A DNA stretch of 64,000 nucleotides from assembly GCA_024137785.1 (NCBI GenBank), contig JAHRHZ010000023.1, forward strand, positions 42,590,260 to 42,654,259, in the 5' to 3' direction. This document shows positions 1,983 to 58,689 of the stretch, one piece after another. This DNA is from Ginglymostoma cirratum. Lineage: Eukaryota. A program made the translations under genes and the position numbers. Position 1 is the stretch's first letter. Every line of letters begins with the position of its first letter. The notes beneath the pieces are model-generated. The model saw only the letters and a program-made list of their open reading frames with translations, did no database searches and was not told the origin of the DNA.

Positions 1983-2140
1983 AGTGTGGAGCTGGAGGAA
2001 CACAGCAGGCCAGGCAGCATCAGAGGAGCAGGAAACCTGACGTTTCTGATGAAGGGTTTAGGCCCGAAACGTCAAGTTTTCCTGCTCCTCTGATGCTGCT
2101 TGACCTGCTGTGTTCATCCAGCCCCATGCTTGTTATCTCG
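1983..2140. mobile_element. Palindromic Penelope-pLTR-derived non-autonomous element with central hammerhead motif
   Basis: ~55-bp inverted arms (gctggaggaacacagcagg...ctgacgtttc / gaaacgtcaag...cctgctgtgttcatccagc) around ctgatgaagggtttaggcccgaaac; closely similar to the termini of the Penelope element at 33793 and 36351. Confidence 0.8.
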
Positions 2141-3143: not shown

Positions 3144-3167
3144 TGGCGACCCGCGCCGGCTCGAGCC

Positions 3168-3230
3168 ACTTTGAACGCCCAACGGCTGAAAGCGAGACTA
3201 GACTTGCACAAAGCGAGAAGGAAACTAACG
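3168..3230 (+). other. actb: actb non-coding exon 1 (TSS approximate)
   Basis: Starts ~30 nt after TATA at Inr-like ccacttt; ends at donor CG|GTAAGA (3231). Beta-actin genes have a non-coding first exon. Confidence 0.75.
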
Positions 3231-3499
3231 GTAAGACAGACTTAAAAAAAAATCAAACACTTCCCACTCCACCCGCCAAAGCATTTTTTAAACAATGAAC
3301 TAGTTTAGTTCGGGGCTAAATATAAAACTACGAATAGCTTTAAAAAATCGAATAAGCAGGTTAGGGGGAGGGAGGTTTGAAGATAGTTCCGATAGATCTA
3401 ACCGAAATCGGTGCTAGCTAACTTAAAATCAAGGGATTGCGGTTTATTTTTTAACTTTCTGGGCTTGTTTCTAAATTCGGGCTAAAATGCGTAGACTGG

Positions 3500-4660
3500 G
3501 GCTGTTCTTCTACCTACTTGGTGGCGTGCGCAAAACCTTAGCACCTTTTTTTGCTTTTTTTATTTGAGGCGAGTGGTAGAAACGCGGGAAATGCGGAGAT
3601 GGCAGCATCTTGGTCGCCTGTTGTCGGCGATAACGTTTTCTTTCAGCCGAGGTGCGGTGAAAGTAACGGGGCTTGTCTGTAAGGCGGAGCCGCTAGCTGT
3701 CCTGCGGTGAGGGCAAGCTGCTGCTTGCTGGAGCCGGGAGGAAGGCGGTGATGGATCTTTCCAGAATGAAGATGGCGGGGGAGGGGAAATCTCAGGAACG
3801 GAGTCGCGTTTCTTCCGTTACTCTTTATGGCGGGGTGTGGTGCGAATACTCGAGCCCAGTGACCGACTAAAGAGTTTAGTTTGGTTTGGCGGGGTGGGTA
3901 ACGGGAAAGAGGAGAAAGTCCGGCTCACCTCGTTTGCTTTCGGTAATCCACGCCACTCGGCTTTTTCTACCTCGATACTTGCCGGGAGGGGAGGGGAGAG
4001 AGCTTAGTGTCACCACCTGACGGTGGTTGAAGACAGGGCGTGGTTGAACGCTTTTAGCTTACTCGCCCGGTGTTACCGAGGGGGAGTGCGGGCTCTGGGT
4101 GTTGCCACCCGAGCGGAGCGGCGCCCTGCCACCGGCATCTCCTTCATCCTTTGCCTCCCACGCGGACGCCGACGCGCATGCGCGCGGAATCGCACACTGA
4201 TGTTGCTGGCAGCCTTGAGCCGCTGTTCTTCAGCGAAACCTTGAGATGCCGCTTCCTCGCTTTGTCTCCGTTTGCTGATAAACTGTATGGCAGTGGCTCT
4301 CCCCCTCCCCCCCCGGACATGGGTGTAACCTCTTTGTGTACCTTTGGCCCCTAGGGAAGTTTGGTCACTTCGATTTTGCGGTCGCTGGTCTCGGGGTTCC
4401 AGCCTCGGAAGCTGGCGGTGAGCCAACCGCCTTGCCTGCCCCCTTCTTCCCCCCCCCGCCGCTGTACAAGTCATTGCCTTTTATGGGCAATGAGAGTTTT
4501 CTTTGTTTCTGGCTCTGCAGCAGCAGCCAGCGCCCTCTTCTGTTATTAGAGGGCGAGCCCGCCAGAGGGAACATGTGCTCAGGAAGTAGCTTGATCAGCG
4601 CAAGTACAATGATCGCCAAGGCGTTCAATTCCCTGGAGGCTTGCAGCACTGGCGTCAACT
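3500..4660. promoter_or_regulatory. CpG-rich actb intron 1 region with YY1 (AAGATGGCGG 3769-3778) and NRF1 (GCGCATGCGC 4174-4183) motifs
   Basis: Visibly high CpG density relative to the rest of the window; motifs read directly. Confidence 0.6.
4477..4486 (+). promoter_or_regulatory. actb: actb intron-1 CArG enhancer (CCTTTTATGG)
   Basis: Identical to the promoter CArG, in the 3' part of intron 1 where vertebrate beta-actin genes carry a conserved SRF enhancer. Confidence 0.85.
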
Positions 4661-4742
4661 CATTGTGCAAGGATAATATTTCGTGAATTTCTGTATCCTG
4701 TAGAATATTCCTTTTACTGATCTTTCTTATCACTTTAGGTAA

Positions 4743-6762
<2,020 letters not shown>

Positions 6763-7240
6763 GCAGACTGTAACTGTCATGATTGCGCGAGATGAATTGG
6801 CATGGCTTTAGTGCTTGTCTCAGGAATAAAAACTGGAACAGTGAAGGTGTTGGTGGTATTTTTGGCAACAAGCATCCCAGAAGTTCTGCAATGCGTTCAA
6901 GGACTGAATTGTACATTTAGTCATTCCAAAATATTGATGTAAAGGATTGCATTGTCTAAGGTTATTAAAGCCTCTGTGAAGGCTGCCCAAAAAGTGGGAG
7001 CAAATACTTAACCTTGTGTAGTATTGCTTATATGTAAATTATGTAACCGAAAAATGTCCTGTTTTGTACTTTCCGCCTTAAATTTTCGGTCCTTTTTGAT
7101 TTTGGTATGCAAAAAGCTTTACCTTTATACAAACACAAGTGAGGTTTACATCCCCTGGGCACAAAATGGACAGTTAAACTTGGGTGATGCCAGTTTGTTG
7201 GACCTACACTGACTAATAAAAGTGCACATGTTTAAATGGA
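6763..7240 (+). other. actb: actb 3'UTR with conserved beta-actin blocks
   Basis: Blocks attggcatggcttta, aaaactggaacagtgaaggtg, agcatccc, agtcattccaaa and aataaaagtgcaca resemble vertebrate ACTB 3'UTRs (from recall). Confidence 0.8.
7215..7220 (+). terminator. actb: actb polyadenylation signal AATAAA
   Basis: AATAAAAGTGCACA context as at the end of vertebrate ACTB mRNAs; GT/T-rich sequence downstream. Confidence 0.85.
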
Positions 7241-7849
7241 AAATTTGAAGTTGCTGTGATTGATTTTAGTTTCTTTTCAAGTTAGATTTTATTAAACTAA
7301 ATGTCAATATAAACACTTGTCTGCAAATTATGGCCTAGAAGATAACCTGGTAGTATCCAGTTCTTGAACTGTACTTAACACTCTGGCACAATCAATTCCA
7401 TCAAGATGTGAGGTTTTATTGATCAAAATTGACTAGTTTTCTAATGTTTCATAAAACATTGAAGCTGTATATTGTCACAATCTCCATAGGAGAACCAAAC
7501 ATTACTGATAAGAAAAGCAGCAATTTGTACATGAGGTCCCACAAACAGAAATTGGATAACTTCATAAATCCAGCATACAAATACTGGAAGGTTACAAACC
7601 CAAGCCTTTACTCTTGAAAGGTTTAAGAATTTGCCTACAAACAGGCAAAATAATTTTGAAATTTTCTTTGAAGGATGCTACCTGATGGGCACACCTATTA
7701 GTATAAGTAATTTGGCAAGAATAAATAGCTGATGGAATTGACTAGATTTTACATTTGATGTCTTTATCAGCCTGGGCAGGTATGTTAAAACACTTCAGAG
7801 GCAGGTGATACTTGAACTTGTGGCCCAGAAGTAGGTTCTGTACCCCACC

Positions 7850-7990
7850 ATTCCCAATTCCTCTAGCTATGCAGGAACCCTTTTTAATCAAGCTGTTCAG
7901 AAATGTTATTGACCACCTCCAGAGCAGGTAGGACTTGAACCCAGGCTTGTTGCTGCAGAGGTGGGAAACTATTCCTGCACCACAAAACCT
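7850..7990 (-). mobile_element. tRNA-derived SINE head (related copies ~40310-40490 +, ~40955-41030 +, ~62150-62320 -)
   Basis: Minus strand reads ttgtggtgcagg...cctgggttcaagtcc (A/B-box-like). Confidence 0.45.
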
Positions 7991-9169
7991 TTTATGGGGC
8001 AGATAACAATTGTGAACATTGACCTTTTCTCCAATGTCTAAATCTCCCATCCCATATGAAACTGAATAGCCAAAGTAGAAGGGGAACAGACATAGATGTG
8101 GAATCCTTTGAATTGTAGACATGAATACCCTATCAAAAAGCCTGGAGTATTGGATCATCCACAGACTTTCCTTTGTTAATTCTATGCAGGTTTTCTGTTC
8201 AATCTAGTTATTGGAGCATAATAGGCATTTTCTAGGTCAATTTGATGTTTATGCCATCACCTATCTCAAGGGCTGACTGAAATTGCACACTAGTATTTCT
8301 TAATGACATGCACACAACACAAGTCTGTAAATGAGATCTATGGATCAGCATCTTTCACAATTGATGTCATTTGGCAGGTTATTTATATGGTTGCATAGAA
8401 CCTTTAAAAATATGGGTTTCCACTACTCCATGTCTGATTGTTCATCCATGGAGTGATGTGGCTGAAGATGTACGTAGAAGGTTGAAAACAGCCCATATAC
8501 TAGACATGGGCAGTGCTATAGTCCCAATGAAGTTTAGAAAATGAAATAGAACTAGACCATTTCAAATAGCTGACTGAGGACCGGATATTTTTCAGTGATT
8601 CATTCAAAAAGGAACCACTGCAAAGCTTTTTCTTCCAATTTTGCTCCTCTACCAAAAGCTTTGATCATTTGCAAAAGAAAGACCAGTGGATTTTCTCTGA
8701 TAGCCCACTCGAGCACAATTTTTAATTAGTGAACTTCAGCAGTAATTGATTGTGGTCTACTTAATTACTTGGAAAGGGTGAAAGCGTAAAGCCTTCTCTG
8801 CACACAACCTGTTTCCATTAGGAGTTTCTGGATATTGAAAAAAAACTCTCAGCTCAGAACAAGGACTGAAACTGGAACCCTGCTGTTGTCTATGGTTCCA
8901 TTGCAGAATTATTTAAATTACTGCAGAAAAGACTTCAACAGGTTTGTTAGCTTGTTGGATTCACCAAAATCCTAAAACTATGCTAAATTTCTCAGGCTAT
9001 GGTAACGTTAACTTGCCATCCAAAAATCGCTATGAGATAATTCCACTCCCCTGGCAAATGGCAACTATCAGTCTCATTGGAGGAGTGAGCATTTCATTTT
9101 ACTTGTAATTGTTTCCAAAATGATCTTAAACCTACATTTGCATTGAGTTTTATGTTCTTATACAGCCGC

Positions 9170-10926: not shown

Positions 10927-13133
10927 ACATAAGAACTAGGAGCAGGAGTAGGCCGTCCGGCCCTTTGAGCCTGCTCCGCCATTCAATAAGATCATGGCTG
11001 ATCTTTTCGTGGACTCAGATTCACTTACCCGCGCTCTCACCGTATCCCTTAATTCCTTTATTGTTCAAAAAAAATCTACCTTAGCTTTGAAAACGTTTAC
11101 TGAAGTAGCGTCAACTACTTCACTGGGCAAGGAATTCCATAGATTAACAACCCTCTGGTTGAAGAAGTTCCTCCTCAATTCAGTCCTAAATCTGCTCCCT
11201 CTAATCTTGAGGCTATGCCCTCTTGTCCTAGCTTCACCTGCCAGTGGGAACATCCTCTCTACTTCTATGTCATCTATTCCCTTCATAATTTTATATGTTT
11301 CTATAAGAACCCCCCTCAAACTTCTGAATTCCAATGAATATAATCCCAATCTACTCAGTCTCTCCTCATAAACCAACCCCCTGAACTCCGGAATCAACCT
11401 AGTGAACCTCCTCTGCACCCCCTCCAGTGCCAGTACATCATTTCTCAAGTAAGGAGACCAAAACTGCACACAGTACTCCAGGTGTGGCCTCACCAGCATC
11501 TTGTACAGCTGCAACATAACCTCTCTGCTTTTAAACTCAATCCCTTTAGCAATGAAGGACAAAATTCCATTTGCCTTCCTAATTACTTGTTGTACCTGCA
11601 GATCAACCTTCTGTGATTCATGCACAAGGACACCCAGGTCCCTCTGCATAGCAGCATGCTGCAACTTTTTACCATTCAAGTAATAGTCCTTTTTACTATT
11701 ACTCCTACCAAAATGTACGACTTCACATTTATTTACATTGTATTCCATCTGCCAGACCTTTGCCCACTCACTCAATGTATCTATGTTCCTCTGCAAAGTT
11801 TCGCAGTCCTCTGCACACTTTGCTCTGCCACTCATCTTAGTGTCATCTGCAAACTTTGACACCCTACACGTGGTCCCCAACTCCAAATCATCCATATAAA
11901 TTGTAAATAATTGCGGTCCCAACACCAATCCCTGAGGCACACCACTAGTCACTGATTGCCAGCCAGAATAGCACTCATTTATCTCCACTCTTTGCTTCCT
12001 GTTAGTCAACCAATCCTCTATCCATGCTAATACTTTACCCCTAACGCCATGCATCCTTATCTTATGCAGCAGCCTCTTGTGCAGCACCTTGTCGAAGGCC
12101 TTTTGGAAATCTAGGTACACCACATCCACTGGGTCCCCATTGTCCACCTTGCTGGTAATGTCTTCACAGAATTCCAAAAGATTTGTCAAGCATGACCTGC
12201 CCTTCATGAACCCATGTTGTGTCTGCCCAACGGGACAATTTCTATCGAGATGCCTTGCTATTTCTTCCTTGATAATAGACTCAAGCATCTTCCCCACTAC
12301 AAAAGTTAAGCTGACCGGTCTATAATTCCCCATCGTTTGTCTACCTCCCTTTTTAAACAGTGGCGTCACATTTGCTGTTTTCCAATCTGCTGGGACTGCC
12401 CCAGAGTCCAGCGAATTTTAGAAAATTACTGCCAGTGCACCTGCTATTTCTCCCGCCATCTCTTTTAGTACCCTGGGATGCATTCCATCAGGGCCAGGAG
12501 ACTTATCAATCCTTAGCTCCATTAGCTTGCCCAACACTACCTCTTCCGTAATAATGATTGTTTCCAGGTCCTCATCTACCTTCATCTCTTTGTCAATTAC
12601 TGGCATGTTATTAGTGTCCTGCACTGTGAAGACCGATACAAAATACCTGTTCAATGCCTCGGCTATTTCATCATATCCCATAACTAAATTCCCCTTCTCA
12701 TCCTCTAAAGGGCCAAAGTTTACTTTAGCCACTCTTTTTCATTTTATATATTTATGGAAACTTTTGCTATCTGTCTTTATATTCTGTGCTAGTTTTTTCT
12801 CATGTTCTATCTTACTTTTCTTTATAGCTCTTTTTGTGGCTTCCTGTTGACCTTTAAAGTTTTCCCAATCTTCTAGTTTCATGCTGTTTTTGGCCACTTT
12901 GTATACCTTCTCTTTCAATTTGATAGCCTCCCTTATTTCCTTAGACACCCATGGCAGATTACCCCTTTTCTTACAGTCCTTCCTTTTCACTGGAATATAC
13001 TTTTGCTGAGCATTTTGAAAAATTGCTTTGAAAGTCCTCCACCGCTCGTCAACTGTCCCACCATAAAATCTTTGTTTCCAGTCTACTTTAGCCAAGTCCT
13101 CCCTCATTCTATTGTAGTCCCCCTTGTTCAAGC
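10927..13133 (-). mobile_element. 5'-truncated, relatively young CR1 (HER1-like) LINE; RT pseudogene
   Basis: One reading frame 13131-11065 broken by only two in-frame stops. RT motifs NYRPVSLT, QHGF, YLDFQKAFD, GVPQG, KFADD; 3'UTR ends in a cttatgt-type tail. Confidence 0.95.
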
Positions 13134-14533
13134 CACAAATGTCAAACCAAAAGTCTAATAGTGAGTCGTGCCAAACAGCTACTCAAGCTCCACTGAACAT
13201 AAATCTCCCACTTTCCCCATGGTTTGAACAAATCCTAAGTCCCCGCTTCCAAAGTATTACATCCCATGCAGGAAAATCTAGGCAGTCCCAAAAACCATTT
13301 CGAAGTCCATGAACCCAGAGCCAGTACTACCAAAGTCAAGAACAATCCTCTGGATCAATATTATCCTCAAAATGCAGGACTGCTTCTAAGCACAGAAAAG
13401 TCCTATTTATTTTATCTGATATTGTATAAATATCAGAGCCATGAAATCTCGAAGTAGTTCTCCTTTCGCAACTAAGTTACCATGGGAAACTGGAGATCTC
13501 CATGGAATTTAAGGATTTAATTTTAATCGCAATTTATTTTGCATCTTAAGTTAACTATTCTCAAGTTAATAATAAATACCAAAAGTATTATCATATATGT
13601 GAAATGGCTACAATATTCTTCAGGGAAAAGATGAATAAATTGACTTACTGACGTAATACTGCTATTAATCGTTTGTATTGCAACAATGTTAGCCTTTATT
13701 AAATGGTGAAGCATGGTCAAACTTTGAACTGAGATGACCCTGGAGGCTGGCCAATTTCTATACAAAGTAATCATCTACATAATGAGGGGTCTCAATTAAA
13801 TGTATACCATTGCATGTTAGTTTCTAAAATTCAGGGATGCAAAGACAAAAGTTAGTCCTGCAGAATCAAAACATTTGGCTTAGTATCAATTTAAGTGTGT
13901 TTTCTGCTGAAAGAGTGAATAAACTGATGTAGAATCAAAGACAAGGTTTAACTTGGAGAAATAACAATTATAATGTATGTAACAAAAGCAAAACTGATGA
14001 TAACAAACTATTATTGCTCATTGGTTAGTCCAGCGGAGAAAGAATTCTTTATTGAGGAAACCAGTTTATTACCTGAAGCAATTGTAAAGGCATTGACTTA
14101 CCTAGTTTCTGCTTATGTAGTTACGCTTTATTGCATTCAAGTAATGCTGAAATAATGTGAATTGTCATGTAGTAGGAGATGTGTAAAATGCTGCTGGTAA
14201 ACATCTCAATTTGTAAATGTTTGAACGTCCTGAAATACAGAGCTCAGACCTGTAACATCTTTGAGGTTCCAATTGTTGGTTGTAAGAGCTGTCTTGTGGG
14301 TCACGTTTAATTCTGATTACATACACATTATGCAGAACACGTGACCATATTTCGAGAATAGTACTGATATTTGAGGAATAGATAGCACATCTAGTAAGAT
14401 AAATAAACCATTTTCTAATAATTCTATTCCAAAAAAGCATTTTGAAAACTCTATTGTTGAGTTGATTCGTGGACAACCGCTATTTAAAGATTTTTTAAAA
14501 ATTGAGCTGATAACCCATGTGCCTGTAGGTGGT

Positions 14534-14662
14534 TTCTGAAGAAGGGTCTCGACCCGAAACGTCAACTTTCCTACTCCTCTGACGCTGCTTGGCCTGCTGT
14601 GTTCATCCAGCTCCACAACGTTTTATCTCAGATTCTCCAGCACCGGCAGTCCCTACTATCTC
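14534..14662 (+). mobile_element. 129-bp Penelope-derived non-autonomous element with hammerhead motif; 14-bp TSD
   Basis: TSD tgcctgtaggtggt at 14520-14533 and 14663-14676; begins ttCTGAAGAagggtctcgacccGAAACGTC. Confidence 0.85.
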
Positions 14663-15024
14663 TGCCTGTAGGTGGTGCTGTGATTAGGCTTTTTCAAGTT
14701 TTGATGCTTTGATAGCATTAATTATATCGTTACATCTTAGGGCAATCATTGTCAGTCTTTATCCAGAAATCAGGAAAACCTTCAAGCACAATCGGTCATC
14801 TTTTACTTCAAAACAAACATTAGAGCCCCTTTAGACAGAAGCATGAGTCCTGTTTGTTACTCATGGAATGCAGAAACGTATGGAATGGTCCCTATCTTCA
14901 CTATACTTGAACTCAGATAACTCAGTAATGTTCGAAGGTGAGACGTTGGATCCACCTGCTCCCTAATTGCTCAGCCAGCATTGTACTACACTGAGACATG
15001 AACATGAGAAAACTGCAAGGTTTT

Positions 15025-15225
15025 GACCATGACCCTGGAGAGTAACTCATCTGCACTTCTTCCATGTAGTGCCATGGGATCCGTGCCTTTACATCCACGT
15101 GAAAGTACGAAGTCTCATCCCAAAGAAATCATCTCTGACAGCTTGGCACTCTCTCAGTACTGCATTCATGTGTCAACCAAGGCTCTGGAATCGGGCCCGA
15201 ATCAGAGGCTAGTGTGCTGACACGA
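15025..15225 (-). mobile_element. Degraded SacSINE1-like (Deu-domain) SINE
   Basis: tagtgccatgggatc, tctcatcc and gcactctctcagtactgca match the recalled reverse-complement consensus. Confidence 0.6.
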
Positions 15226-15462
15226 CATATGTTTCACACCGAACTAATACTAGGGTAAGCCTCTGTTACATATTTTTTTAAAATAACATACAAGTTATTG
15301 GAGTCAAGAAGAAACGGTTTAATCACCCCATTCCAATCGCTGTTAACACAGCAAGCCACAGTATGAATTGTAGTAATATACATTGGACAGAAGCAGCAGA
15401 AACTTTCGAAGTAGAATTAGCTGCATACTTTGAAAAGGAAAAATAAACAAGTGTATGGATAA

Positions 15463-15600
15463 CAAAAACAAAGTTGCTGGAAAAGTTCAGCAGGTCTGGC
15501 GGCATCTGTGGTGGAAAAAACAGAGTTTACGTTTCGGGTCCGGTGACCCTTCCTCATTGTTCCTGATCCACAGCATCCGCAGTTCTTTCGGTTTTCATTT
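15463..15600 (-). mobile_element. Penelope-derived non-autonomous element (second subfamily); 14-bp TSD
   Basis: TSD aagtgtatggataa at 15449-15462 and 15601-15614; internal gtttcgggtccggtgacccttcctca is a minus-strand hammerhead-like core lacking its first C. Confidence 0.85.
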
Positions 15601-15860
15601 AAGTGTATGGATAAAATAGTGGTAGTCGGGCTAATGGGAGAACTCATTCAAAGAACAATCATAGGCACAACGGACTGAATATTGTTCTCTGCTGTAAGAC
15701 TCTGTGAGAAGACCTGGGGAATCGGAGTGAGACTGTTTTTAGTAACTCTTATAGAGCTACAGGCCAGACATAATGGCACACGGTATCCGCTTGCATACCC
15801 GAGTCTTCCCCGGCACTGGAGTCAATAACCGGTCCTGGAAACGCTATCATTTAATTTCGA

Positions 15861-15959
15861 ACAAAATCAGAAGTTGCTGGAAAAGCTCAGCAGGTCTGGC
15901 AGCATCTGTGAAGAAATATCAGTGTTAACGTTTCGGGTCCAGAGCCCCTTCCTTAGAAC
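15861..15959 (-). mobile_element. Penelope-derived non-autonomous element; 15-bp TSD with 1 mismatch
   Basis: TSD atcatttaatttcga (15846-15860) / atcatttaatctcga (15960-15974); same arm as the 15463 copy. Confidence 0.8.
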
Positions 15960-16061
15960 ATCATTTAATCTCGACAAGTGTCCTTTTATGATTTGTTTAA
16001 TTATTATGAGTTGCACGCTTCCAAAAGAAACACGAGGGCAGGGTACTTTTGTAAAACTATT

Positions 16062-16288
16062 AATAAAAACCAAAAGAACTGCGGATGGTGTAAATCAGGA
16101 ACAAAGACAAAGTTGCTGGAAAAGCTCAGCAAGTCTGGCAGCATCTGTGAAGGAGAAAACAGAATTAAACATTTCGGGTCAGTCGGAACAGTTCTGAGGA
16201 AGCGTCACCGAACCCGAAACGTTAACTGTTTTTTCCTTCAAATGCTGCCAGACCTGCTGAGCTTTTCCAGCAACTTTGTTTTTGTTGT
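16062..16288. mobile_element. Palindromic Penelope-derived element with hammerhead motif at 16187-16230
   Basis: Inverted arms acaaagttgctggaaaagctcagcaagtctggcagcat / atgctgccagacctgctgagcttttccagcaactttgt. Confidence 0.85.
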
Positions 16289-16409
16289 GGTTGTAAAATT
16301 CTTCTTATTTGATGCCACCGGGATGGAAAGGAAAACCCAATCTCTCGGATTCCAGGAAAGGAAGCGCGGCTGAATACCCTGTCCCTGTATACGGCAGTTG
16401 CCTTTGAGT

Positions 16410-16620
16410 TAGGAGCGGAGGTCGGGGAGTGAGCGGGGCGGACGCTTGGGGGAGCAAGCGGGGCGGAAGTCGGGCCTGCGCAGGGCTGGAGTCGACGGGA
16501 CTTGTGGGGCGGAAGTCAGTGTGTGCGGGCGGATTTCACAGTGCGTGTGTCGGAATTAAGTTCCGGAGCGGCGCTGTTAGTTTGTTGGTGCAGGCAGTGT
16601 GAGCGGCAGTGGATTGCTCC
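16410..16620 (+). promoter_or_regulatory. fbxl18: fbxl18 CpG-rich TATA-less promoter
   Basis: Two GGGGCGGAAGTC Sp/ETS composites (16460-16471, 16506-16517), GC box ~16435, palindrome cctgcgcagg (16475-16484); 150-350 bp upstream of the ATG. Confidence 0.75.
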
Positions 16621-16764
16621 TGCTCTGTGTTCTGCCTCGGACCGTCAAATATTTTTATTTAAAACTTTTCCCATTTATATCTTGGTTATTCGTTTGTAGA
16701 GTTGGTTGTTGATGTGCTGCCTTGCCCCCGAGTGAGCCGTTAACTGAAGCCGGCGCCCGAAGAG

Positions 16765-16980
16765 ATGGAGAGCGGAGAGGAGCCGGAGCAGGCCCAACCC
16801 CAACCCCAACCCCAGACCCTCAACCTGACCGAGTTCTCAGATGAGATTCTGTTGACCATCCTGAGGTTTGTACCCAGCTGCGACCTCCTGCTCAATGTCC
16901 GGAAAGTGAATAGAAAGTTGGCGGCTCTGTGTATGGACAAGAGCCTGGTCAGCTCTGTCACTCTGCACAAGGAGTACCAG
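16765..16980 (+). CDS. fbxl18: fbxl18 coding exon 1 (F-box)
   Basis: gagATGG Kozak; donor CAG|gtaaat. Confidence 0.9.
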
Positions 16981-19900: not shown

Positions 19901-22900
19901 CAGGGTTTTGGGTAAAGAATGGGAGAGTGGGACTAACTGTGTCGTTGTTTGAAAGTGCTGGCTCAGACCTTAGGGGCAAACTGCCTCCTGTGATAGACCG
20001 TTCCATGATATTGCCATGGGGAGGAAAATATGTGAAAGGAAATATTTTATTTGAGCATTGAGTCTACAAAAGTAAGATTAAAACTAATGAATGACATAAA
20101 AATCCGTGGAACAAAACATAGCCAGCCCTCGAATCAACTGGATTTATAAAAAAGATGTGCATCAAATACAATACATACCCAAAGATCAATTAGGAAATCT
20201 ACGTGTAAACCTGGAAGTTTGTTATTGCTTTTAGTACCAGAGCAATATTATGCAATTGGAAATGAAGAAGATTGAGTTCGAAGAGGAAAGTAACCACGAG
20301 AGGGCAGTAGAGTAAGCCCGAAGTGCTTACTGTGGAATGTGAAGCCAAATGATTAACTCTCCGCTGAAATTGAATTTAACTTTTAACGCAGCAGTAGTTC
20401 CTTTTGCACCAGGTTTCATTTTGGTCCCTGTAAAGACTAACAACTTTCTGAAAAGAAATTCAAATTCCCAGTGGCCAATTTAAAGGAATTGCGGAACAAG
20501 CTAAAAGCAACTATTGCTGAATGGTATTTCAGTGGGCAGTTTATGCTCTAAATTGCAGAAAAAAATTAACATTTTAAACCACCTGAAGATCATCCTTTAT
20601 TCTTCTTTTATATTACAATTAAGCATCCATGTTAGTCTTCTGTTTACAAGAATGATACCTGGATTTGAGTTATATTATGAGGAGAAATTATACAAATTAG
20701 GACTGTTTTCTGGAGAATTTAAAGGTTAAGGGGTGATTTGGTCAAAGACATCAAGATATTAATGGGAAAAGTCAGAGTAGATAAATTGTTTTCACTGGTT
20801 AGGGATTCAAAGACTAGGGGCCACAGTCTTAGGAATTTGGACCAAACTGTTCAGGAGAGATGTTAGGAAACACCTTGAACTCTCTTTCCACAAACGGTAG
20901 TGGATGCTGAATCAGTTGTTAATTTTTAATCTGAAATAGGTAAAGTTTTGTTAGGTAAAGGTATTAAGGGATATGGCCAAAGGCAGATATATAGAGTTAG
21001 GCCACAGATCAGCCATGATCCCATTAAGTGGTCAAGCAAACTTGAGGGGCTGAATGGTCTACTTCTGTTCCTATGAAACTGGTCCAGTGTTATTCGTGAC
21101 TTCTGAGGACTTGATTCCTTTCTCTTCCTTTTCCAGTTGGATAACTTCTAATCCCCAAATTGGCTTTACCAATGAAGATTACCCTGGAGATTCAGTCTTC
21201 CAGCCAAAGCTAGGCAAATCTTCCAATCTTGTTTGAATCCTCAGTGCCAATCTTTTTGAGTCTGACAGTGTGCTCCTGCCTGTGTTCATGTGTGGTGACT
21301 GTACATAGAACCTCTGTTTACAACCTGACGTCTGTGTGACTCAGTTAAGAAAGGACACTAAGACATTTTACAACGGCTTAATATGGATTCTCAACACCCA
21401 TATCCATGGCAACTGGAATTGTATGGGCTTCGCATCCAGGTAGAATTGCTAGTAAGCCATTCTTTAGACTTTCTGTTCCATTCTGTGTTGAAAATAAGTA
21501 GACTATTTGAGCTATAATAGTTTACAAAACGTGACATTCCTAGCACCTTCCTGGGACTTTGGAAATGTGTGGTGTGTTCACTGTATTTCCAGCAAAACAA
21601 CTTGGGGGCCCTCTTTAATCTCTAACACCTGAATGTGCTGCCTGTAGAATTCAGAGCAGGTCACATAGACTTCTTTGTTCCTTCTATTTATCCTAAATTA
21701 AAGATGCAATCTGAAAACGTAACAATCTTATAAACCTCACATTTCTAACAGTATTTTAGGCTAGAGATTGCAAGTACCTAGTGCTTTGGTGCTTCTCCCT
21801 TCTAAATATGTTGTTTGATCTGGAGCAATGAGATGCAAACCATGAACTGCTGTATGTTTAAAGCTATTTTTTGTTCTTGTACTGAAGTAACTTCACATAA
21901 GCTGATCAATCCAGAATAGGCAAGATCATTTTATGTTGATTTTCACGTCAAGCTCTAGTACCTTGTCTAATTGTCATCCTTGATGTGTGAATGTAATTGA
22001 TGACATGCTGTAGTTGTGGAGCATATCTTGATCAGCAGACTCTGATATTATTCATTTCCACTCCCTTATTGTATAATTAAGGAGAAGGAGCCTTTCTCAT
22101 TCTCTATCCCTTCCCTGCTCCCTAGTGCCCAGAATGGAGCACAGCACCCTGTTTGAGATCTGAGGTATGGCCCATTGATTGATGCAGGACTTTCTGACCT
22201 TGGTTTTGCACCTCTTACCACGTTTGCTGAGCCTTAATATTTATTGGCAAGTTTTTTTTTATAGCTGGGGGTTCAATTCTATAAGATATGAAGCAGCAAC
22301 CATTTTGAGAGGAAGTAAAAGGTTCCATTGATTCATCTGCAGCAGTGTGAATGCACTGCTCATATTTATTCCAGAACAAAGCTTTCTATTAAAGGATTTT
22401 TCACCTTCACAGCCTTTGAAATAAACTTTGTTTTGTTTCCAGGAGAGTGACGCAAAAGTGACGTCTCTGCTGAAAGAAATAGCTAGTGACATTCAACAAC
22501 TGAAGCTGAGTGGCTGCTATTGGTTGTCTGGCTCAACTATTGATCAGGTGGTAAAATGTAAAAACATCCTGAAGCTTGACCTGACAGGATGCCGCATGAC
22601 ATCACTGCGTCTGTCCAGAATGCTGTCTGCACTCTGTAACCTGCGGTCCCTTGCTTTAGATGTCAGCCAAGGATTTGATGTGGGCCAACTGAGCAGTGAG
22701 TGTAAGGCAACACTTGGCAAAGTAACTGAACTGAAGCAGACTTTATTCACCCCTTCTTATGGTGTTGTTCCGTGCTGTACCAATCTGGAGAGGCTATTGC
22801 TTTATTTTGAAATCCCAGATCGGACTCGTGAAGGAGAAATGCTCTCAGGCCAACTGATGGTCGGACAAAGCAACATCCCCCACTATCAAAATCTCAAGGT

Positions 22901-25900
22901 ATTCTATGCAAGGCTGTCACCTGGCTACGTTAACCAGGAAGTTGGGAGATTTTACCTGTCAGTTCTGAGCATTCGGACTCCCGAGAACTTGCGTGCCTTT
23001 ATCCTGTCCGTCCCTGGAGTTTTTGTTGACACTGGATGCTCCACACGGAACTTTCTAGATTGCATGACCAAAAACTTTAGCTTGGAGGCACTGCAGCTCC
23101 CTCGATCCTGGTTGAATGGATCCTCACTTCTACATTCCTCGCTTTTGCACACCATTACATTGAGCAACCCTGTCTATTTGAACTTCAGCCACTGCATACT
23201 GTCTGGCTGTCAGCTGAGCCATCAAATCATTAATGGAGGCAGAAACGTCCAGTCACTAGTTAGCTTGAACCTCAGCGGTTGTGTCCATTGCCTGCTATCA
23301 GACTGCTCTGTCTTTCGCAAGGCTAAAGACGACATTGATTTCGATGTGGTGGAAGCACTGGTAAACTGTTGCACCAACCTGAGGCACCTGAATCTGTCTG
23401 CAGCTCACCACCACAGCCCTGAGGGCACCGGAAGGCACTTGTGCTTGCTTCTGGCAAGATTGAAGCAGTTGCGTTCGTTATCGCTCCCAGTGTGTTGTGT
23501 GGTGCAAAGTGCCAAAAACACTGACAAACTGCCTAATCATGCAGTGCCAGCTTTGCAGGCACAGTCTGTGCGCCGGGGTCTGGGAAAGAAAGTTCGAATT
23601 GGAGTTCCGACCTATCCAAGGAATATTCAGGAGCAGCTGTCGTTGAATTTGCCAGCAACTGTGTTTGGGACTCTACTGGAGAATATTCCCTTTTTGGAAG
23701 AGCTGGAGTTGATTGGGTCCAGTTTCTCCTCGAACGTGCCTCGAAATGAGCCTGCCATCAGGAACATGCAGCCACCCTGTGACCGAGCACAGCGGATCCG
23801 AGACGAAGAGCTGGCACTTATTGGACACTTGCAGCACCTGCGCAGTCTGACCTTGGCCCAACTTCCTGGTATTCTCACAGGGTCAGGGCTGATTGGCATT
23901 GGACTGAAGTGTCAGCAGCTACAGACATTATCCCTGGCAAACCTTGGGCTGCTGGGTAAGGTGGCTTACATGCCAGCCTTGTGTGAAATGCTGAAACACT
24001 GCAAACAGTTGAAGGACTTGAGGTGAGAGCATGTCTTTCTTAGAATTTGAAGTTTTCACATGTACTCCAGAAATGAAGGATTCACCGTTAAGTCTATAGC
24101 ATTTGTGTCTTCATGTGAAGCTGTCTGTAAATCTCGATAAAGGGAACTTCATTGTTCTAGCACCTTTTTAAGTTCTCAGGATGTCACAAAGTGCGCAAAG
24201 TCAATGTTTAAATGCAGTCTTGCAGAGTCTGTCAAAGAGCAATGATTGACTAGTGATGGTGGTGTAGTGGTTATGCTTCTGTACTAGCAGTTCAAAGATC
24301 TGCATAAATCATCCATCATCAAACTGACTACAAATCCCACCGTTTCAGAAGGAAAATTCTCTTTTTTTCATAAGGTGAATTTTTTTTAAATAAAAAAACT
24401 GGTATCCTTTAAATAAAAGTGACTCCATTATTGGTTGAATGTTTACAAAAAAAGCAGATTCACTGTCACGTGGTTGCGAAAACCTGTCGTCTTTACCAGT
24501 TTTGAACTGCCCTCTGGTGTAGCTGAGCATGCCATTCATTTGTATGAAACTGTTCAAGAAGCTGTAGTTCTGCTGATGGCATGATGAACAGCTATGGACC
24601 ATGCTTCTAGTTAAAAATGTGGAATGAGGGAAAGAATTCTGTAAAAGTAGCTTTCTCGCTTATTCAACAATTGTGCCTATGTTGCTCTGCTCCCAAGTGA
24701 CATTACATTCATTTTGTGGTAGACGTTTCTTGTACTGCTTACTTATGTGTGATCGCCCTCTTGTCCAAGGCTTAGTTTGACTGCCATATGCTGCAGTGAT
24801 TTGTGACCTGTTTAATTGTTTTGTTCATTTTACACAGTCATAGGTGGAGGAGAAAAGATTATGACTGTTTGCGATAATGGAGGATTTTCCTTTTCTTCTG
24901 ATACAGCTATTCTGTCCTTGAGTAATTTTGTTCAGTGCCACATTGCTCATATGTAGAATTCGATTTGTTTCTGGCACACAAATACTAGGACCCTTGAGGG
25001 TAATATTTTTGACCCAAGAAATGCTTATTCATCACTGTGCCCAATTAACATAAATTAAGCTACAGAGTTGAATACGGTTTATGTGGTTAGGCTGGAATTG
25101 TGGCTACAGGGAATTCTGCATCACTATCTACAGGATTTAACAAGCAGCAGTTATTTAGTGGCTAATGTGACTTACAGCTGCTATGTTTTATTTTATTATT
25201 TTGTGGGTTGTGCATGTCACTGTCTAGGCCGTCTTCTGTTGCCTTGTCTCTGCCCTTGAGAAGGTTGTACTGAATGCCTTTTGAACCATTGCAGTCCTTG
25301 GGGTGTAGATGCGCACCCACAGTGCTGTTATGAAGGGGAGTTCCAGAATCTGGACCTATTGTTAGATGATTGTATTCCTTTTAACGTGTTCTTCCGTCTG
25401 TAAAGTTCGTGGAAGGTGCTGTTGAAAGAGTGCAAAGTATTTTATTTCCTTTCTGACTTATCCCTGTAAATGATGGGGCAGATTTGAAAGAATCATGAGT
25501 TGTGTTAACCAGTCGCAGAATTCCCAGGTCCTCCCGTAGCATTGGTATTTATTTGAATACTCCAATTAAGTTTCAAGCATGTTGATGATAAGGCTTCAGC
25601 AATGCTGGATGGTTAAGTTCTGACTTATTGAAGATGTTAATTGCCTGGCATGTGTGTGCTGTACTTATCAGTCCAAACCTGACTGAGTCTTTGCTGCACA
25701 TGGGCACAGGTTACTTTGTGTGGAATTGTGATTGGAGCTGCACACTGCACCCAATAGCGAGCATGCTCACCACTGACCTTATGATGGAAAGAGAGTCATC
25801 GATAAAAATATTTGGGAGTCAGACACTACCCTGAGGAACAATTGCAACAATGTCCTTGGACTGAGATGATTGGCTTCCAGCCATCACAATAGTTCTCTCC

Positions 25901-31900: not shown

Positions 31901-34900
31901 AAATGTTATCTGTAATCTACATTCTTGTGTGTGATGTATGTGTGTTTGAATGTAGCTGCATTTTGGAATGATAAAATAGGATGGGAGAGGAAAAGCACAA
32001 CTTCACATTAAGGAGTACTGAAGTATAAAAAGCAGGGGTAAAAAATACAATTGGTAGGAGAGATATCAGGAAAAATTAAAAACATTGAAAAGTGACACTG
32101 GGAATATGCAGTCACTTGCTCACTCCCTAGTTTACGCTGTTGCCCAAAGGGCTGAGTTGAGTGGATTTTTTTTCCCCCCCTATGAACCACTAGCTTTTAT
32201 GATGCATACTCTGAGTTCCTGGTGGACTTGTTATAACGTTAGTCCATTTACAGATGGTACTTTGGATTTTAAAGTATGTGGCCACTGCTGCTCAATTGCT
32301 GACTCTGTTAATGTCATTTTTCTGAAAATATGGCCTGAAGCGAAGACCTATTTATTTTTCCTATGTCGCCATGCTGTAGGTCATTGTGTAGGAGGTTTAG
32401 CTTTCTCCCGCTTTTACCATCCCATGCTATATTTGTACTGCAGTGAAGTTAATCATGTGAGGCCCAGTGAGATTAATAAGGGATATGGAATGAAACCAGT
32501 GTGTCCTTGCTTGCCTCTTTGAAGCCCGCAGCATTCTTGGTTCATACTTTTTGCTGCTTTGAAATTGATTACAGATCACGCCGAGTAGCCTAGAATCATT
32601 TTTTGACAGCAGGTTATTAGCTGTGGTATTTTGCAGTCAGCTGTTTGTGGATGTCCTCACGCTAAGGCAAAATAGATCCTTATTCAACTTCTAAATAGCA
32701 TCTTGGAAAAGGTAGAGTGGGATAAAGAGCATTAGGCTTTAAGATGAGTCTTATTGATCATATTTACTTCCGTTGAATGTTTGAATCTTTCCACTGCTGA
32801 TTAATCCTCGTGTCAATCCTTATTCTCTTAGTCTCCAGTGACATTAGGATGCACATTCCATTTCCAGTATTTTCAGACCAAGTAGTGGGAAAATGCAGCG
32901 GAGCTATTCAGACATGTTTTCCACATTTACCAGTGCATCCGTCGGCCATGGTGCGTGGACCTGCAAGTCAGTTCAGCATAATGAAACTCAGCAGGTCTGG
33001 CAGCATCTGTAGAGAGAAAAACAGAGTGAGGCTTTAAGTTTGTTACCATTACTTGCTCTGAAAAAAGGAGTCATATTGGACTTGAAACATTAAATCTGTT
33101 TCTGTCACCACAGATGTTGCCGGACTTGGGCTTCTCCAGCATTTATGTTTTTATTTTCAAACTCAAATATCTGCAGTATATTTTTTAATTTCAATGTGAT
33201 AACCCGGCCTGAAATTTTAAGTTTAATTTAACCTCTAATGATTCATTCCAAATAAAAATGTGGAGTGTTAATGTAGAAATCTTGGATAGCTCGGTAGCAA
33301 TTAAAAACGAATAGTGGGAGCCCTTCCAGAGTCAAAAGGACTGGATCCTGTCCAGAAGTTATGAATCAAACCCACTAACTCTACTTTCAGACTTGAGTTG
33401 GGCATTAATATTGCTAGAGAGATACTCTTTTTTTTTTTTTTTTTTGTTTTGTTTTTAAGCTAGTTTCTTCCAAATCAGCAGTTAATGATTTAATTCAGTC
33501 TATACCCTGCTAGATTTCCTCTGCAGTCTTCCCAAAATCTCTCCATTTGATTTTTTTCCAAATATTTATGACTTGCTTTCATCTTGAAAGTCCACATCCC
33601 AGGCAGCTCCCTATTACTAAATAGGAACCTGTAAGTAGTAGATTGTATATCAGTGTGGCTTAGCGGGTAGAACTTGCACCCTGAGTCACTATCCCACAGA
33701 CTTGAATACAACAATCCAGTGCAGTCATGATGGAATATTGAGGGAATGTTTGTACCGCTGCTTTTTGGATGTGCTACTAAGCTGACACCCTGGATAACAA
33801 GGCGTGGGGCTGGATGAACACAGCAGGCCAAGCAGCATCAAAGGAGCAGGAAAACTTGACGTTTCGGGCCTAGACCCTTCATCAGAAATGGGGGAGGGGA
33901 AGAGGGTTCTGAAATAAATAGGGAGAGAGGGGGAGGCGGATAGAGGATGGATAGAGGAGAGGATAGGTGGAGAGGAGGCAGACAAGTCGAAGAGGTGGGG
34001 ATGAAGCCAGTAAAGGTGAGTGTAGGTGGGGGGGTAGGGAGGAGATAGGTCAGTCCAGGGAGGACGGACAGGTCAAGGGGGCGGGATGATGTTAGTAGAT
34101 AGGAGATGGGGGTGGGGCTTGACGTGGGAGGAGGGGACAGGTGAGAGGAAAAACAGGTTAGGGAGGTGGAGATGAGCTGAGCTGGTTTTGGGATGCGATT
34201 GGGGGAGGGGAGATTTTGAAGCTTGTGAAATCCACATTGATACCATTGGGCTGCAGGGTTCCCAGGCTGAATATGATTTGCTGTTCCTGCAGCCTTCGGG
34301 TGACATCACTGTGGCATTGCAGGAGGCAGAGGATGGACATGTCTGAGGAATGGGAGGGGGAGTTGAAATGGTTCGCGACTAGGAGGTGCAGCTGTTTGTT
34401 GCGAACTGAGCGCAGGTGTTCTGCAAAGCGGTCCCCAAGCCTCCGCTTGGTTTCCCCAATGTAGAGGAGGCCACAACAGGTACAGCAGATGCAGTATACC
34501 ACACTGGCAGATGTGCAGGTGAACACCTGCCTGATGTGGAAAGTCGTCTTGGGTCCTGGGATTGGGGTGAGGGAGGAGGTGTGGGGGCAGGTGTAGCACT
34601 TCCTGCGGTTGCAGGGAAAAGTGCCGGGTGTGGTGGGACTGGAGGGGAATGTGGAGTGGACAAGGGAGTCGCGGAGGGAGTGGTCCCTCCGGAAGGCAGA
34701 TAAGGGTGGGGAGGGAAAAATGTCTTTGGTGGTGGGGTCTGATTGCAGATGGCGGAAGTGTCGGAGGATGGTGCATTGGATCCGGAGGTTGGTGGGGTGG
34801 TACGTGAGGATGAGGGGGATTCTTTTTTGGTTATTATTGCGGGGACGGGGCGTGAGGGATGTGTTATGGGAAATGCAGGAGACACGGTCGAGGGCGTTCT

Positions 34901-37900
34901 CGACCACTGTGGGGGGGAAGTTGCGGTCCTTGAAGAATGAGGACATCTGAGATGTACGGGAGTGGAATGTCTCATCCTGGGAGCAGATGCGGCGGAGGCG
35001 AAGGAATTGGGAATAGGGGATGGCATTTTTGCAGGAAGGTGGGTGGGAGGAGGTGTATTCCAGGTAGCTGTGGGAGTCAGTGGGCTTGAAATGGACATCG
35101 GTTTCTAGATGGTTACCCAATATGGAGACAGGGGTCCAGGAAGGAGAGAGAAGTGTTGGAGATGGTCCAGGTGAACTACAGGTTGGGGTGGAAGGTGTTG
35201 GTGAAGTGGATGAACTGTTCGAGCTTCTCGTGGGAGCACGAGGCGGCGCTGATGCAGTCATCAATGTAATGGAGGAAGAGGTGGGGTTTAGGGCCAGTGT
35301 AGGTACGGACGAGGGATTGTTCCACGTAACCTACAAAAAGGCAGGCATAGCTTGGGCCCATGCGGGTGCCCATGGCCACCCCCTTTGTCTGTAGGAAGTG
35401 GGAGGAATTGAAAGACAAGTTGTTGAGGGTGAGGACGAGTTCGGCTAAGCGGATGAGGGTGTCGGTGGAGGGGGATTGGTCAGTTCTGTGGGACAGGAAG
35501 AAGCAGAGGGCCTTTAGGCCATCTGCATGGGGAATACAGGTGTATAGGGACTGGACGTCCATAGTAAAAATGAGGTGTTGGGGACCGGGGAATTGGAAGT
35601 TCTGGAGGAGGTGGAGGGCGTGGGTGGTGTCACGGACGTAGGTAGGGAGTTCCTAGACCAAAGGGGTGAAAATGGAGTCTAGGTAGGTGGAGATGAGTTC
35701 GGTGGGGCAGGAGCAGGCGGACACAATGGGTCGACCAGGGCATTCAGGTTTGTGGATTTTGGGGAGGAGATCGAAGCGGGCGGTGCGGGGTTGGGGAACG
35801 ATGAGGTTGGAGGCGGTGGGTGGGAGGTCACCTAAGGTGATGAGGTTGTGGATGGTTTGGGAGATGATGGTTTGGTGCTCGGGGGTGGGGTCATGATCCG
35901 GGGGCGGTAGGAGGAGGTGTCAGAGAGTTGGCACCTGGCCTCAGCAATGTAGAGGTCAGTGCGCCATACTACGACTGCCCCTCCCTTGTTCCAGGGGGCG
36001 GTAGGAGGAGGTGTTTCAAAATCTCCCCTCCCCCAGCCACATCCCAAAACCAGCCCAGCTCATCTCCACCTCCCTAACCTGTTTTTCGTCTCACCTAGCT
36101 CCTCCTCCCACCTCAAGCCCCACCCCTATCTCCTATCTACTAACATCATCCCGCCCCCTTGACCTGTCCGTCCTCCCTGGACTGACCTATCTCCTCCCTA
36201 CCCCCCCACCTACACTCACCTTTTACTGGCTCCATCCCCACCTCTTCGACTTGTCTGCCTCCTCTCCACCTATCCTCTCCTCTATCCATCCTCTATCCGC
36301 CTCCCCCTCTCTCCCTATTTATTTCAGAATCCTCTTCCCCTCCCCCACTTCTGATGAAGGGTCCAGGCCCGAAACGTCAAGTTTTCCTGCTCCCATGATG
36401 CTGCTTGGCCTGCTGTGTTCATCCAGCCCCACGCCTTGTTATCTCGGATTCTCCAGCATCTGCAGTACCTTTTATCTCTGATAAGCTGACACCCTGTCTG
36501 CTCCCTTTGGTGAATGTGAAACATTCTGTGGCACTACATAGAGAAGAGCAGGAGAGTTGCTGGTGTTATCCAGGACAGTATTTGTCCCTTGAGGAATAAA
36601 TCCAAAAACAAACTACCTGATTATTATCACTCTGGTGTGCACAGATTCCAGTCACGGTACTCACATTGCAACAGATTCGTCAGCACTTCTTTGGTGGGAA
36701 CCCTATTTCTGACCCTGAGCAAATTAAAAATTACATCTCAATGACTTCTGTGTTGGAGATTCCAAGTCAGGAGCTTCCTGTGATGAACCTGTCTATGAAT
36801 CCAGGAGCGAAGGAGATCTTTATAGACACCACAGCACCATTTTGCAGCAGTCAGTCAGTGAGCTGTGTTCTGTGGTTTTAAATGTCCAGCCCTTTGACAA
36901 CCCCTGTGAAAGTGTAAACCATGTAATGTCAGCACAGGCTTAGGTTGGCAGTTGGGTGAGTGGGTTACGTTGCCAACTAGGTAGGATGCAGAGTAAGTAA
37001 ATGAGTGCTTACGGTCAGACTGGGGACTGGGGAGCCTGCTTGTTGGTTGGGGCTGCATTGAGAGGTCATGGGCTTTGGGTCTCGGATGGAGGTGGAATGG
37101 GAGTCATCAAATGGCAGTGGTTCGGTTGGTGTGTGGTTGGATTGAGGCAAGGTACTGGGTCTGGAAGCTGGGTTTGGATGGCTCAAGGCAGGGCACTGGG
37201 TGTGGAAGGTGGGTGTTGAGGAATTGGTGATTCTGGGTGTGTAGGGGAATTGCCACCTGGCTAGGGGTGTGCAGTGATTCGGTCTGGGGGTAGGGGTAAA
37301 TCAGAGGTGAGGCAGGGTGATGTCAAGAATGGCAGGGCTATGTTTTGGGTTAGGCAGGTTTGGATGAGGGTGTTGGGGATCAGAGGTATAGTTGGTGGGC
37401 CCAAGGGGTCAGTGGTGACTGAGTCAGGGATGTCAGATGTTAAAGAAGGTTTTTAATCCTCTAGAGCTGATGGCCTAGTGATATAATCATTACAGTACCT
37501 GGGTCTCTGGATGAATAATGTTCTGGGGACCCATGTAGTAGAATTTGAATTCAATAAAAATAAATTGGGATTAAGAATCTAATGATGACCATGAAACCAT
37601 TGCCGAATGTTGGGAAAACCCATCAGGTTCACTGATGTCCTTTAGGGAAGGAAATGTGCCATCCGTACCCAGTCTGTTCCACATGTGACTCTAGTTCCTC
37701 AGCAATACGGTTGATTCTCAACCGCCCTCTGAGCAGTAAATACTGGCCTGGCCCACGACGTCCACATCCCGTGAATGAATAAAAATAAACAAGATTAATT
37801 GAGTTGGAACCTCCAAGGTTTTCACTTTTTAAGGAGCTTTCTCAGCGGGTTCCAGACAGGGGAGTTGCGCATCAGAAGTTTCAATTTTCTGGGCAATTCT

Positions 37901-56735: not shown

Positions 56736-57484
56736 CTTTGACTTTATGATTCACATTTTCCAACACTGAGTCCTTCCTTGTACAAGAACCAGAACACCAC
56801 ATGCAATTCTGGGTGGGGCGAACTGCCCTGAATCACATCCTATGCTTGCTTGATTCATTTCATAACACTCAAGTATCCTATTTCCTTCATCCGTTGCTGC
56901 TGGATGTCTTTTTAAGGATCTATCCGCCATCACCCTCTTGATCATGTACAGTGTTATAGAATTAGAAGATGTAGGGTGGAATTTGGAGTAGTAAATGTTT
57001 ATTTGGAGCACTAACATCAGCATAGGCCATGCTGGGGCTAAATAACCTTTCTCTGTGCTTCCAGATTTTATGTAACCTTCACCTCCTCACCAATACCTCA
57101 AAAACTCTCTTATTATCCCTTATCTTAATTCCTGTCTCAATCCATAGAGGTTTTATTTCCTGCAATTTAACATTATTTACAATAAATGCACCTGGCTGTC
57201 CTGACCTCAGCTGTGAAGTCTTGTACATCAGTTTCTATCCTTCATGATGTGCTGCTACTTTTATTCTTAGTTAAATGTTGACGTACAGCGATTTAATATT
57301 GCAATCATTGTATTGTCCACAACATAACATTTAACATCATGCTTTTCATGCACTTTGTTTATGGTTTTATGCATATTATTTTTAAAACCCTTGCCTTGAT
57401 TCTTGTACAATCCCACCTCAGCTAGTTACTAAATTCCATTATTTTAGTGTGCTTAATGAATGATTCAAACCTGTGTCATTGTTA

Positions 57485-57629
57485 GACGAGCAGGAAACTT
57501 GACATTTCGGGTTGAGACCCTTCTGAAACGTCAGCTTTCCTGGTCCTGTGATGCTGCCTGGCCTGCTGTGTTCTTCCAGCTCTACACCTTGTTATCTCAG
57601 ACTCCAGCATCGGCAGTTCTTACTATCTC
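57485..57629 (+). mobile_element. Short palindromic Penelope-derived element; degenerate ~13-bp TSD
   Basis: caggaaacttgacatttc / gaaacgtcagctttcctg arms, tail gactccagcatcggcagttcttactatctc; flanks tgtgtcattgtta / tatgtcattttta. Confidence 0.75.
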
Positions 57630-58689
57630 TATGTCATTTTTACTTCATTAATTAAATGTTCTGCCTTACCATATGAGTTTAAGTTTGCTGGTACCCATAC
57701 TTTTTAGTCTCTTAGCTAGTATGTTGGTGCTTCTAGGTTTCAACTGAAAACCATCCCTTCTGTGCAATCTATTACAATCCTTGAGTGCATTTCAGTATCT
57801 AACTTATACAAAACTCTAAATGCTTCCCTGTTTTAACATGTCTCTTATTCTGATCTATAGTGCCCAACATGGCATTGGAAGTAACGCAGCGATGACACAT
57901 CAAGCTCCTCTTCCTCACTATAACACCAAGCCTTGCAAAAATCCGGTTGCAGGATTCACTTCCTATTGCTGCTCCTGTTGTTGGCCGTCACATCAATCAT
58001 TGCCACTGGCTGCTTCCCATTTGCCTAGCCGTTGAATAGCAGCTTTCCCATATTCCTGTCCTTTTCCCTAAAGTCACTCCTATTCTTCTGCTGTTTTCTG
58101 ACTATCTTGTGAAGGCTGCGATCCAGAACTCACCATCCTTTTGGATATTAATAGCTGCAGGGATTTTTAACATAGATCCCCAGAATATTTTATCAATCTC
58201 CAGGGTGACCCACATCCAAAATCTTGTATGTAACCTGAGAGGTCCCTTACTATCTATTTCTAGATGTATCAATTATGAGAAGAAAATGTTTATTCTTTGA
58301 CAATCTCTCAGCACACAATCTAGACTAGTTTGATTAGGTACATTAGCAGAAAGTTTGTGCACATTCCTGCGATGGATCTGTAATGCTCCACATGTTCTTG
58401 AGGTTCTCTTAATCCAGCTGTTCAAACCTGCTATGGTTCATATTTATACAACTTCAACCCTGACCTCTCTTTGGATAGTGCTTTCTTGAACTCTGGCAAT
58501 AAACTCTGCCAGGATAAAATTCCTTGCTCACTTTTCTTTTGCAAATCACAGGCATTAGTGAGAGATTTTATTTCATAATTGATGCCAGCCCTGATCCTGT
58601 AACATCAGTCTAAATATATATTTTCTGGATTGAGTAAGACATTCTCACTTAAATCTCACGCCTTTTTTTTCTCAAAATAAAAAGCAAGT

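Follow-up and report, generated by a model that had tools for sequence, protein, structure and literature searches.

The small hammerhead-bearing insertions upstream of fbxl18 in Ginglymostoma cirratum are best explained as dead-end, one-off insertion products (stubs) of two protein-coding families of Penelope-like elements (PLEs), in which each arm corresponds to the hammerhead-bearing end of its parent. The probability of this explanation is put at about 0.8. Judged by sequence, both families are the terminal ~100-130 nt of coding PLEs. The insertion steps we infer by drawing on the biochemistry of an anole enzyme. The DNA analyzed was a stretch of 64,000 nucleotides (the window), complemented by a larger regional sample of the same genome.

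Insertions and neighboring features in the window

Four small Penelope-derived insertions are present upstream of fbxl18 (Table 1), exactly where a preliminary description of this DNA had placed four such elements within 1.8 kb. Clear target-site duplications (TSDs) had been claimed for three of them and were recovered for the elements at 14534, 15463, and 15861 (14/14, 14/14, and 15 bp with 1 mismatch, respectively). The element at 16062 was found to lack a clean TSD; 8 exact bases were detected and 11/14 were matched by eye (16048-61 vs 16290-303). Each insertion had been described as an arm with a hammerhead core, intact or decayed. Both states were found, the canonical core CTGANGA-stem-GAAAYNTH being intact only in the 14534 copy and in the right arm of 16062. 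The 15861 core carries mutations, and those of 15463 and the left 16062 arm are cut. As reported earlier, the 14534 copy starts 2 nt ahead of its core, or 3 nt if a T common with the TSD is counted; the 15861 arm likewise starts 3 nt ahead of its mutated core. The minimal type-I hammerhead in the Penelope pLTR is a sequence motif, for which self-cleavage is predicted. An Rfam scan gave no hammerhead family match, its hits being chance miRNA-type matches to the palindromes, plus one within the actin coding region (mir-3533, 6276-6359, below the gathering score).

Table 1. Positions of the insertions, their relatives and adjoining features within the window.
Feature	Position	Strand	Details
Family-A head-to-head stub	1983..2140		
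Left TSD of family-A solo stub	14520..14533		14 bp; right copy 14663-14676; 14/14
Family-A solo arm	14534..14662	+	Intact hammerhead core 14536-14563; 3′ end at long-tail site (+126)
Family-B element	15463..15600	two strands	TSD 15449-15462 / 15601-15614, 14/14
Left piece of 15463 element	15463-15556	-	Short-tail arm; its core is cut at the first core base
Right piece of 15463 element	~15557-15600	+	Long-tail piece, joined to the - strand arm
Family-B solo short-tail arm	15861..15959	-	TSD 15846-15860 / 15960-15974
Family-B head-to-head pair	~16062..16289	- / +	Long-tail arm (-), filler, short-tail arm (+); TSD decayed
Left arm of 16062 element	16062-16180	-	Long-tail; truncated in stem II
Right arm of 16062 element	16189-16286	+	Short-tail; starts 5 nt ahead of intact core 16194-16223
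CpG island	16200..16950		Covers first coding exon of fbxl18; neighbor, separate from the elements
fbxl18	ATG 16765		F-box 16765-16980; LRR_FBXL18 22425-24023; neighboring gene
Old family-B head-to-head stub	32984..33185		
Coding family-A Penelope-like element, 5′-truncated	33793..36480	-	RT, Cys-rich linker, GIY-YIG; 3′ end at short-tail site 33793; inverted long-tail arm ~36015-36480; TSD 33778-33792 / 36481-36495, 15/15
Decayed relative	38065..38190		65-68% to family B/A arms
Old family-B solo arm	48045..48180	+	
Family-A head-to-head stub	57481..57630		Junction in stem II

The arms belong to two families, A and B, that are ~65-70% alike over their ends and coding parts, in line with the earlier claim of at least two subfamilies. 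Family A contains the elements at 14534, 1983, and 57485 together with the coding element at 33793-36480, to whose pLTR one subfamily had indeed been said to be close. Family B contains 15463, 15861, 16062, 32980, and 48045. The relatives previously listed at 1983, 32980, 38065, 48045, and 57485 proved real, that at 38065 being weak and decayed; no clean TSD was found at any of these five. A tRNA/SINE-like repeat lies at 38280-38580, with a decayed family-B-like arm adjoining at 38619-38679. Family A itself comprises at least three subfamilies (78%, 85-90%, and 95% alike) in the 864-kb block that surrounds the window, each with long and short copies; a TATA-like box and the 50 nt ahead of the core are kept in them, and divergence grows further upstream.

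Orthologous sites were sought in contigs of two related organisms. In organism A, both flanks of the 14534 element lie on one single-copy record and are separated by 27 letters, compared to 166 in the window; the expected spacing is 23 letters with one copy of the TSD and 37 with two. For organism C, the spacing is 62 letters vs 171 in the window, with 28 predicted. Because the flank spacing is short, the 14534 element is absent from both organisms, as known from lengths rather than letters. The expectation of an empty orthologous site was borne out to that extent. For the three family-B elements, flank contigs run into the element ends in both organisms, so these elements are likely older and shared. 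Short insertions were also seen in the related organisms at 16638, 16778, and 16802, affecting the leader of fbxl18 and its repeat-rich N-terminal coding part.

Elsewhere in the window, actin coding exons occupy ~4450-6400, downstream of a 1.9-kb CpG island (2600-4550). Between these exons and fbxl18, the - strand carries at 11065-13182 two long open frames, of 450 and 147 aa, for a reverse transcriptase of LINE type, which we take to be CR1-like by its motifs.

Coding parents and regional sample

The coding element at 33793 scores just below the Pfam cut-offs in both domains: its reverse transcriptase (RT) matches RVT_1 at 28.9 bits (cut-off 29.6; E 1e-6) and its endonuclease (EN) matches GIY-YIG at 22.1 bits (cut-off 22.6; E 2e-4). 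The two closest matches of the 14534 copy are the 3′ ends of long coding copies (L002 and L003), to which it is 95% identical, and identity to long copies is 90-95% for all five arms that make up the four elements. Among the 29 best other genome matches to 14534, 10 run at least 80 nt on into the 3′ region of the parent; the same holds for 8 of the 29 best matches to the 16062 arm. In family B, tblastn detected EN, or RT and EN, coding sequence directly upstream of the arm at four loci (L040, L048, L053, and L054) and a weak EN match at a fifth (L034). At one family-A locus, L146, the tail sequence runs into the N-terminal part of the ORF, with the first in-frame Met after the tail; L155 has most of the same upstream ORF region. 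The stub sequence is thus leader sequence of the coding unit as well, which parallels the anole element. L146 itself (90-1500) is nearly full-length, although broken, and low-complexity sequence rich in Ala and Thr precedes its RT domain. The earlier attribution of the insertions to Penelope elements with minimal hammerheads is supported by these coding parents.

The regional sample comprised 1,158,424 unmasked bases from three regions: an 864-kb block surrounding the window, a block of C249 and a block of C9. Of four additional 200-kb blocks, those of C145 and C18, which are all N, fell outside it, as did 70 kb of N in C9. Arms were located using profile HMMs made from 25 (A) and 6 (B) long copies. 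These replaced a single reference after eight blast 'ends' at -46 to -52 and one at -65 had turned out to be mostly long copies of an older subfamily, or deletions. Positions were counted from the C of the core CTGANGA. In total, 333 arms were obtained, corresponding to 273 elements, or one per 3.2-4.6 kb (~4.2 kb overall); should these regions be typical, the whole genome would contain about a million such elements.

Short elements, in which no arm extends beyond -40, account for 205 of the 273. A TSD score of at least 10 was reached by 45/205 short elements, compared to 2/400 random sites, and in 24 of these 45 the TSD is 14-15 bp long. The agreement in TSD length with the coding element (15 bp), noted earlier for the window, is seen in the sample as well. 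The 3′ ends form two peaks ~33-36 nt apart, at ~+93 and +126 in family A and at ~+95 and +130 in family B. Head-to-head pairs (n = 52) mostly combine a long with a short tail (45 pairs, p 3e-8), with 4 short+short and 3 long+long pairs. One head-to-head stub (L026, 1450-1500) carries telomere-like repeats (CCCTAA/CCCTAG) as filler between its arms.

These features can be accommodated by the reaction described for the anole enzyme in PMC11167929. In short, both strands are cleaved and extended there, and RT initiates at two sites inside the RNA that match the genomic tail ends. Products shorten when the RNA 5′ end is shortened, and ribozyme cleavage is dispensable. The RNA is needed up to ORF nt 172, with the main start at 111-118, and the integration steps of Penelope after initiation are stated to be unvalidated. 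By analogy, the shark endonuclease would cut both target strands ~14-15 nt apart, and each 3′ end would serve as primer for RT, which would start within the RNA at either of two fixed positions ~33-36 nt apart. One cDNA joined to the target would leave a solo arm, and two cDNAs joined to each other a head-to-head palindrome. Close to half of the arms end 1-8 nt ahead of the core; the mRNA would start there, and RT would run off the RNA at its 5′ end.

5′ ends of the arms and alternative readings

Breakpoints were counted for 262 arms ending from -99 to +60; from a total of 326 arms, 16 that border on N had been removed, and 42 long arms plus 6 ending beyond +60 were outside this range. The 5′ end lies at -8 to -1 in 116/262 (A 56/135, B 60/127), with the mode at -3, compared to 5% under uniformity. 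This hot spot is present in all three sampled regions and in both families. The hot-spot end is a true junction in at least the 39 pairs that contain one and in 7 solo arms that have a TSD; of the 66 solo hot-spot arms, 59 are without detectable TSD at the threshold used. An apparent second peak in family A at -21 to -31 arose mostly from misalignment of the partner arm.

In 17/22 long A copies, a TATA-like hexamer begins at -35/-34, and in 5/6 long B copies it begins at -33. Most long copies have an A in pyrimidine context (initiator-like) at -4, ~30 nt after the TATA-like box, which is the spacing of TATA-initiator geometry. From these sequence features, the odds are about even that the hot spot is the mRNA start, specified by the TATA-like box and the initiator, with RT running off the RNA 5′ end. 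A putative TATA and initiator have been noted in the pLTRs of Adineta (PMC3846280), and the promoter of D. virilis Penelope is internal and TATA-less (PMC2377424). Tentatively, and with the chances somewhat against it, the stubs can be seen as fossil 'strong-stop' cDNAs. The mRNA would start 4 nt before the hammerhead, and RT would start ~95 or 130 nt inside the leader and run off. Long copies would result only if the cDNA transferred to the RNA 3′ end, possibly via the ~30-nt core repeated there, resembling the first strand transfer of LTR elements. If true, failed transfers would be preserved in about a million stubs, from which the start site and the two initiation sites could be read at single-base resolution.

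Alternatively, the hot spot at -3/-4 may be set by the hammerhead fold or a bound protein, through stalling, fold-back or cDNA annealing; the origin of the stubs would be the same. This is a serious alternative, held at less than even odds. The sequences place the 5′ strand of hammerhead stem I on the very bases of the hot spot (-1 to -4 in A, -1 to -5 in B), and several pairs join a hot-spot end to +27 to +41, or within stem II, as annealing of inverted repeats would give. On the other hand, RT reaches the fold from the 3′ side, so that a stall would be expected at ~+25 to +35, where there is no peak. In 11 pairs both arms end at the hot spot, with unrelated filler separating the arms in several of them, and the 7 solo arms that have a TSD begin directly at this duplication or a few letters away from it. 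The TATA-like spacing, moreover, fits in two families that are only ~65% alike. Two other sources of the hot spot were considered and rejected. Hammerhead cleavage predicts ends at +28/+30, where no excess was observed; ends within 2 nt of the predicted cleavage site numbered 0 (A) and 2 (B), vs ~4 expected in each. A 3′ splice site would require an AG, which occurs at -4/-3 in family B and is missing in family A, and most B copies keep the G.

The preliminary description had regarded the short copies as 'ribozyme SINEs', i.e., a separately replicating non-autonomous family with an internal promoter that is mobilized in trans. We consider this quite unlikely, in spite of the large excess of short elements (205/273) and the sharply defined 5′ end that speak for it. 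Non-autonomous PLE derivatives are known in MRC1 of Chlamydomonas (PMC8557442) and in animal retrozymes (10.64898/2026.07.22.740005), and because an internal promoter has been shown for D. virilis Penelope, a stub beginning at the start site might be transcribed. The stubs, however, end at the presumed RT start sites and would be without the downstream RNA required by the anole enzyme; as the RNA in the anole reaction extends ~55 nt beyond the RT start sites, they are probably not re-copied. Their nearest relatives are the ends of coding copies. All 52 head-to-head junctions differ from one another, and only 5/330 neighboring arms are head-to-tail (adjacent on the same strand). For the junction of 15463, no near-identical locus was found among the 40 scored of 995 candidates, nor for that of 16062 among the 40 scored of 93; among these scored candidates, the best full-length matches are 85-89% identical with length changes.

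Short copies also form no clade in a tree built from the 42 long-tail arms of family A in the 864-kb block (24 short, 18 long): the tree requires 14 label changes, compared to a shuffled mean of 13.9, and 0/200 bootstrap trees united the short copies. This tree covers family A only and is weak (128 columns; 22/39 inner branches unsupported), and a modest short-copy lineage could hide in it. Its one supported short-only group, of four copies, is probably an artefact of flank letters taken into cut cores. Of the earlier proposal, separate insertion of each element by Penelope RT/EN holds, given TSDs of their own with the length of that of the coding element and different ages. Separate mobilization as a non-autonomous family does not, in view of coding parents 90-95% identical, no short lineage in family A and no shared junctions.

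Finally, it is highly unlikely that the fbxl18 cluster reflects preferential insertion into open promoter chromatin, as had been suggested, or preferential retention there: the sole cluster of four in 1.8 kb in 1.16 Mb does adjoin a CpG-island promoter (Poisson chance 6e-4 for one site named in advance), but uniform placement predicts 2.6 such clusters in the sample and 1.07 in the 864-kb block alone, against one seen, and 17 elements lie no more than 2 kb from one of the 17 computed CpG islands, vs 16.0 expected (13 vs 15.0 minus fbxl18). Not all of these islands are promoters, so the island count has modest power and a weak preference is possible. Under the stub explanation, the cluster is accumulation at background density over at least two epochs.

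Comparison with known systems

The following comparisons refer to passages of the papers cited. Solo and opposite-strand minimal hammerheads of metazoans (PMC4209133) are mostly single and are described as 'probably related to truncated PLEs', with some opposite-strand pairs 100-700 bp apart, like the pairs found here. The genomes named there include no shark. The density observed in this study is far above the 4,000-9,000 motifs of coelacanth and frog, which were counted by a different detection method. Animal non-LTR retrozymes (10.64898/2026.07.22.740005) are also short, non-coding and pLTR-derived, with a type-I hammerhead. Retrozymes consist of head-to-tail tandem units, an arrangement seen here in the five neighboring arms mentioned above, whereas the stubs stand alone or in head-to-head pairs, and each has a TSD of its own.

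More closely related are the insertion units of EN+ PLEs (PMC8557442), including Pen2a of Adineta (PMC3846280). These share 5′ truncation, a head-to-head inverted 5′-truncated arm, a 30-40-bp tail at one end, a TSD, and a hammerhead in the pLTR. The shark elements display the corresponding set: a parent with RT and C-terminal GIY-YIG, the hammerhead motif, an inverted arm with tail, and a TSD. The Cys-rich linker between RT and EN is a Neptune/Nematis trait according to PMC8557442. The minimal form dominates here, making up about three quarters of the elements, and TSDs are 14-15 bp long, compared to 8-10 bp in the Adineta examples. The layout of the stubs (inverted arm, 30-40-nt tail, TSD) is already published (PMC8557442, PMC3846280). 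The question whether the family had been described before is thus answered in part: layout and truncated-PLE hammerheads are in print, and the sharp 5′ hot spot is the detail not found there. It is unmentioned in the passages of these two papers, and no title or abstract opening found in the Penelope literature describes it, although Fig. S2 of PMC11167929 may show it in the anole.

The closest parallel is Poseidon of Anolis carolinensis, PAc (PMC11167929), which has a hammerhead at the pLTR-ORF junction and two fixed 3′ end points one tail-length apart, and in which either strand is usable. The shark elements differ from it in the Cys-rich RT-EN linker and in the first in-frame Met, which in L146 follows the tail. 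The PAc paper maps where cDNAs start rather than where they end. Read as a naturally occurring archive of how Penelope integrates, the stubs would yield two base-precise predictions, one from the sharp 5′ hot spot and the other from the pairing of long with short tails.
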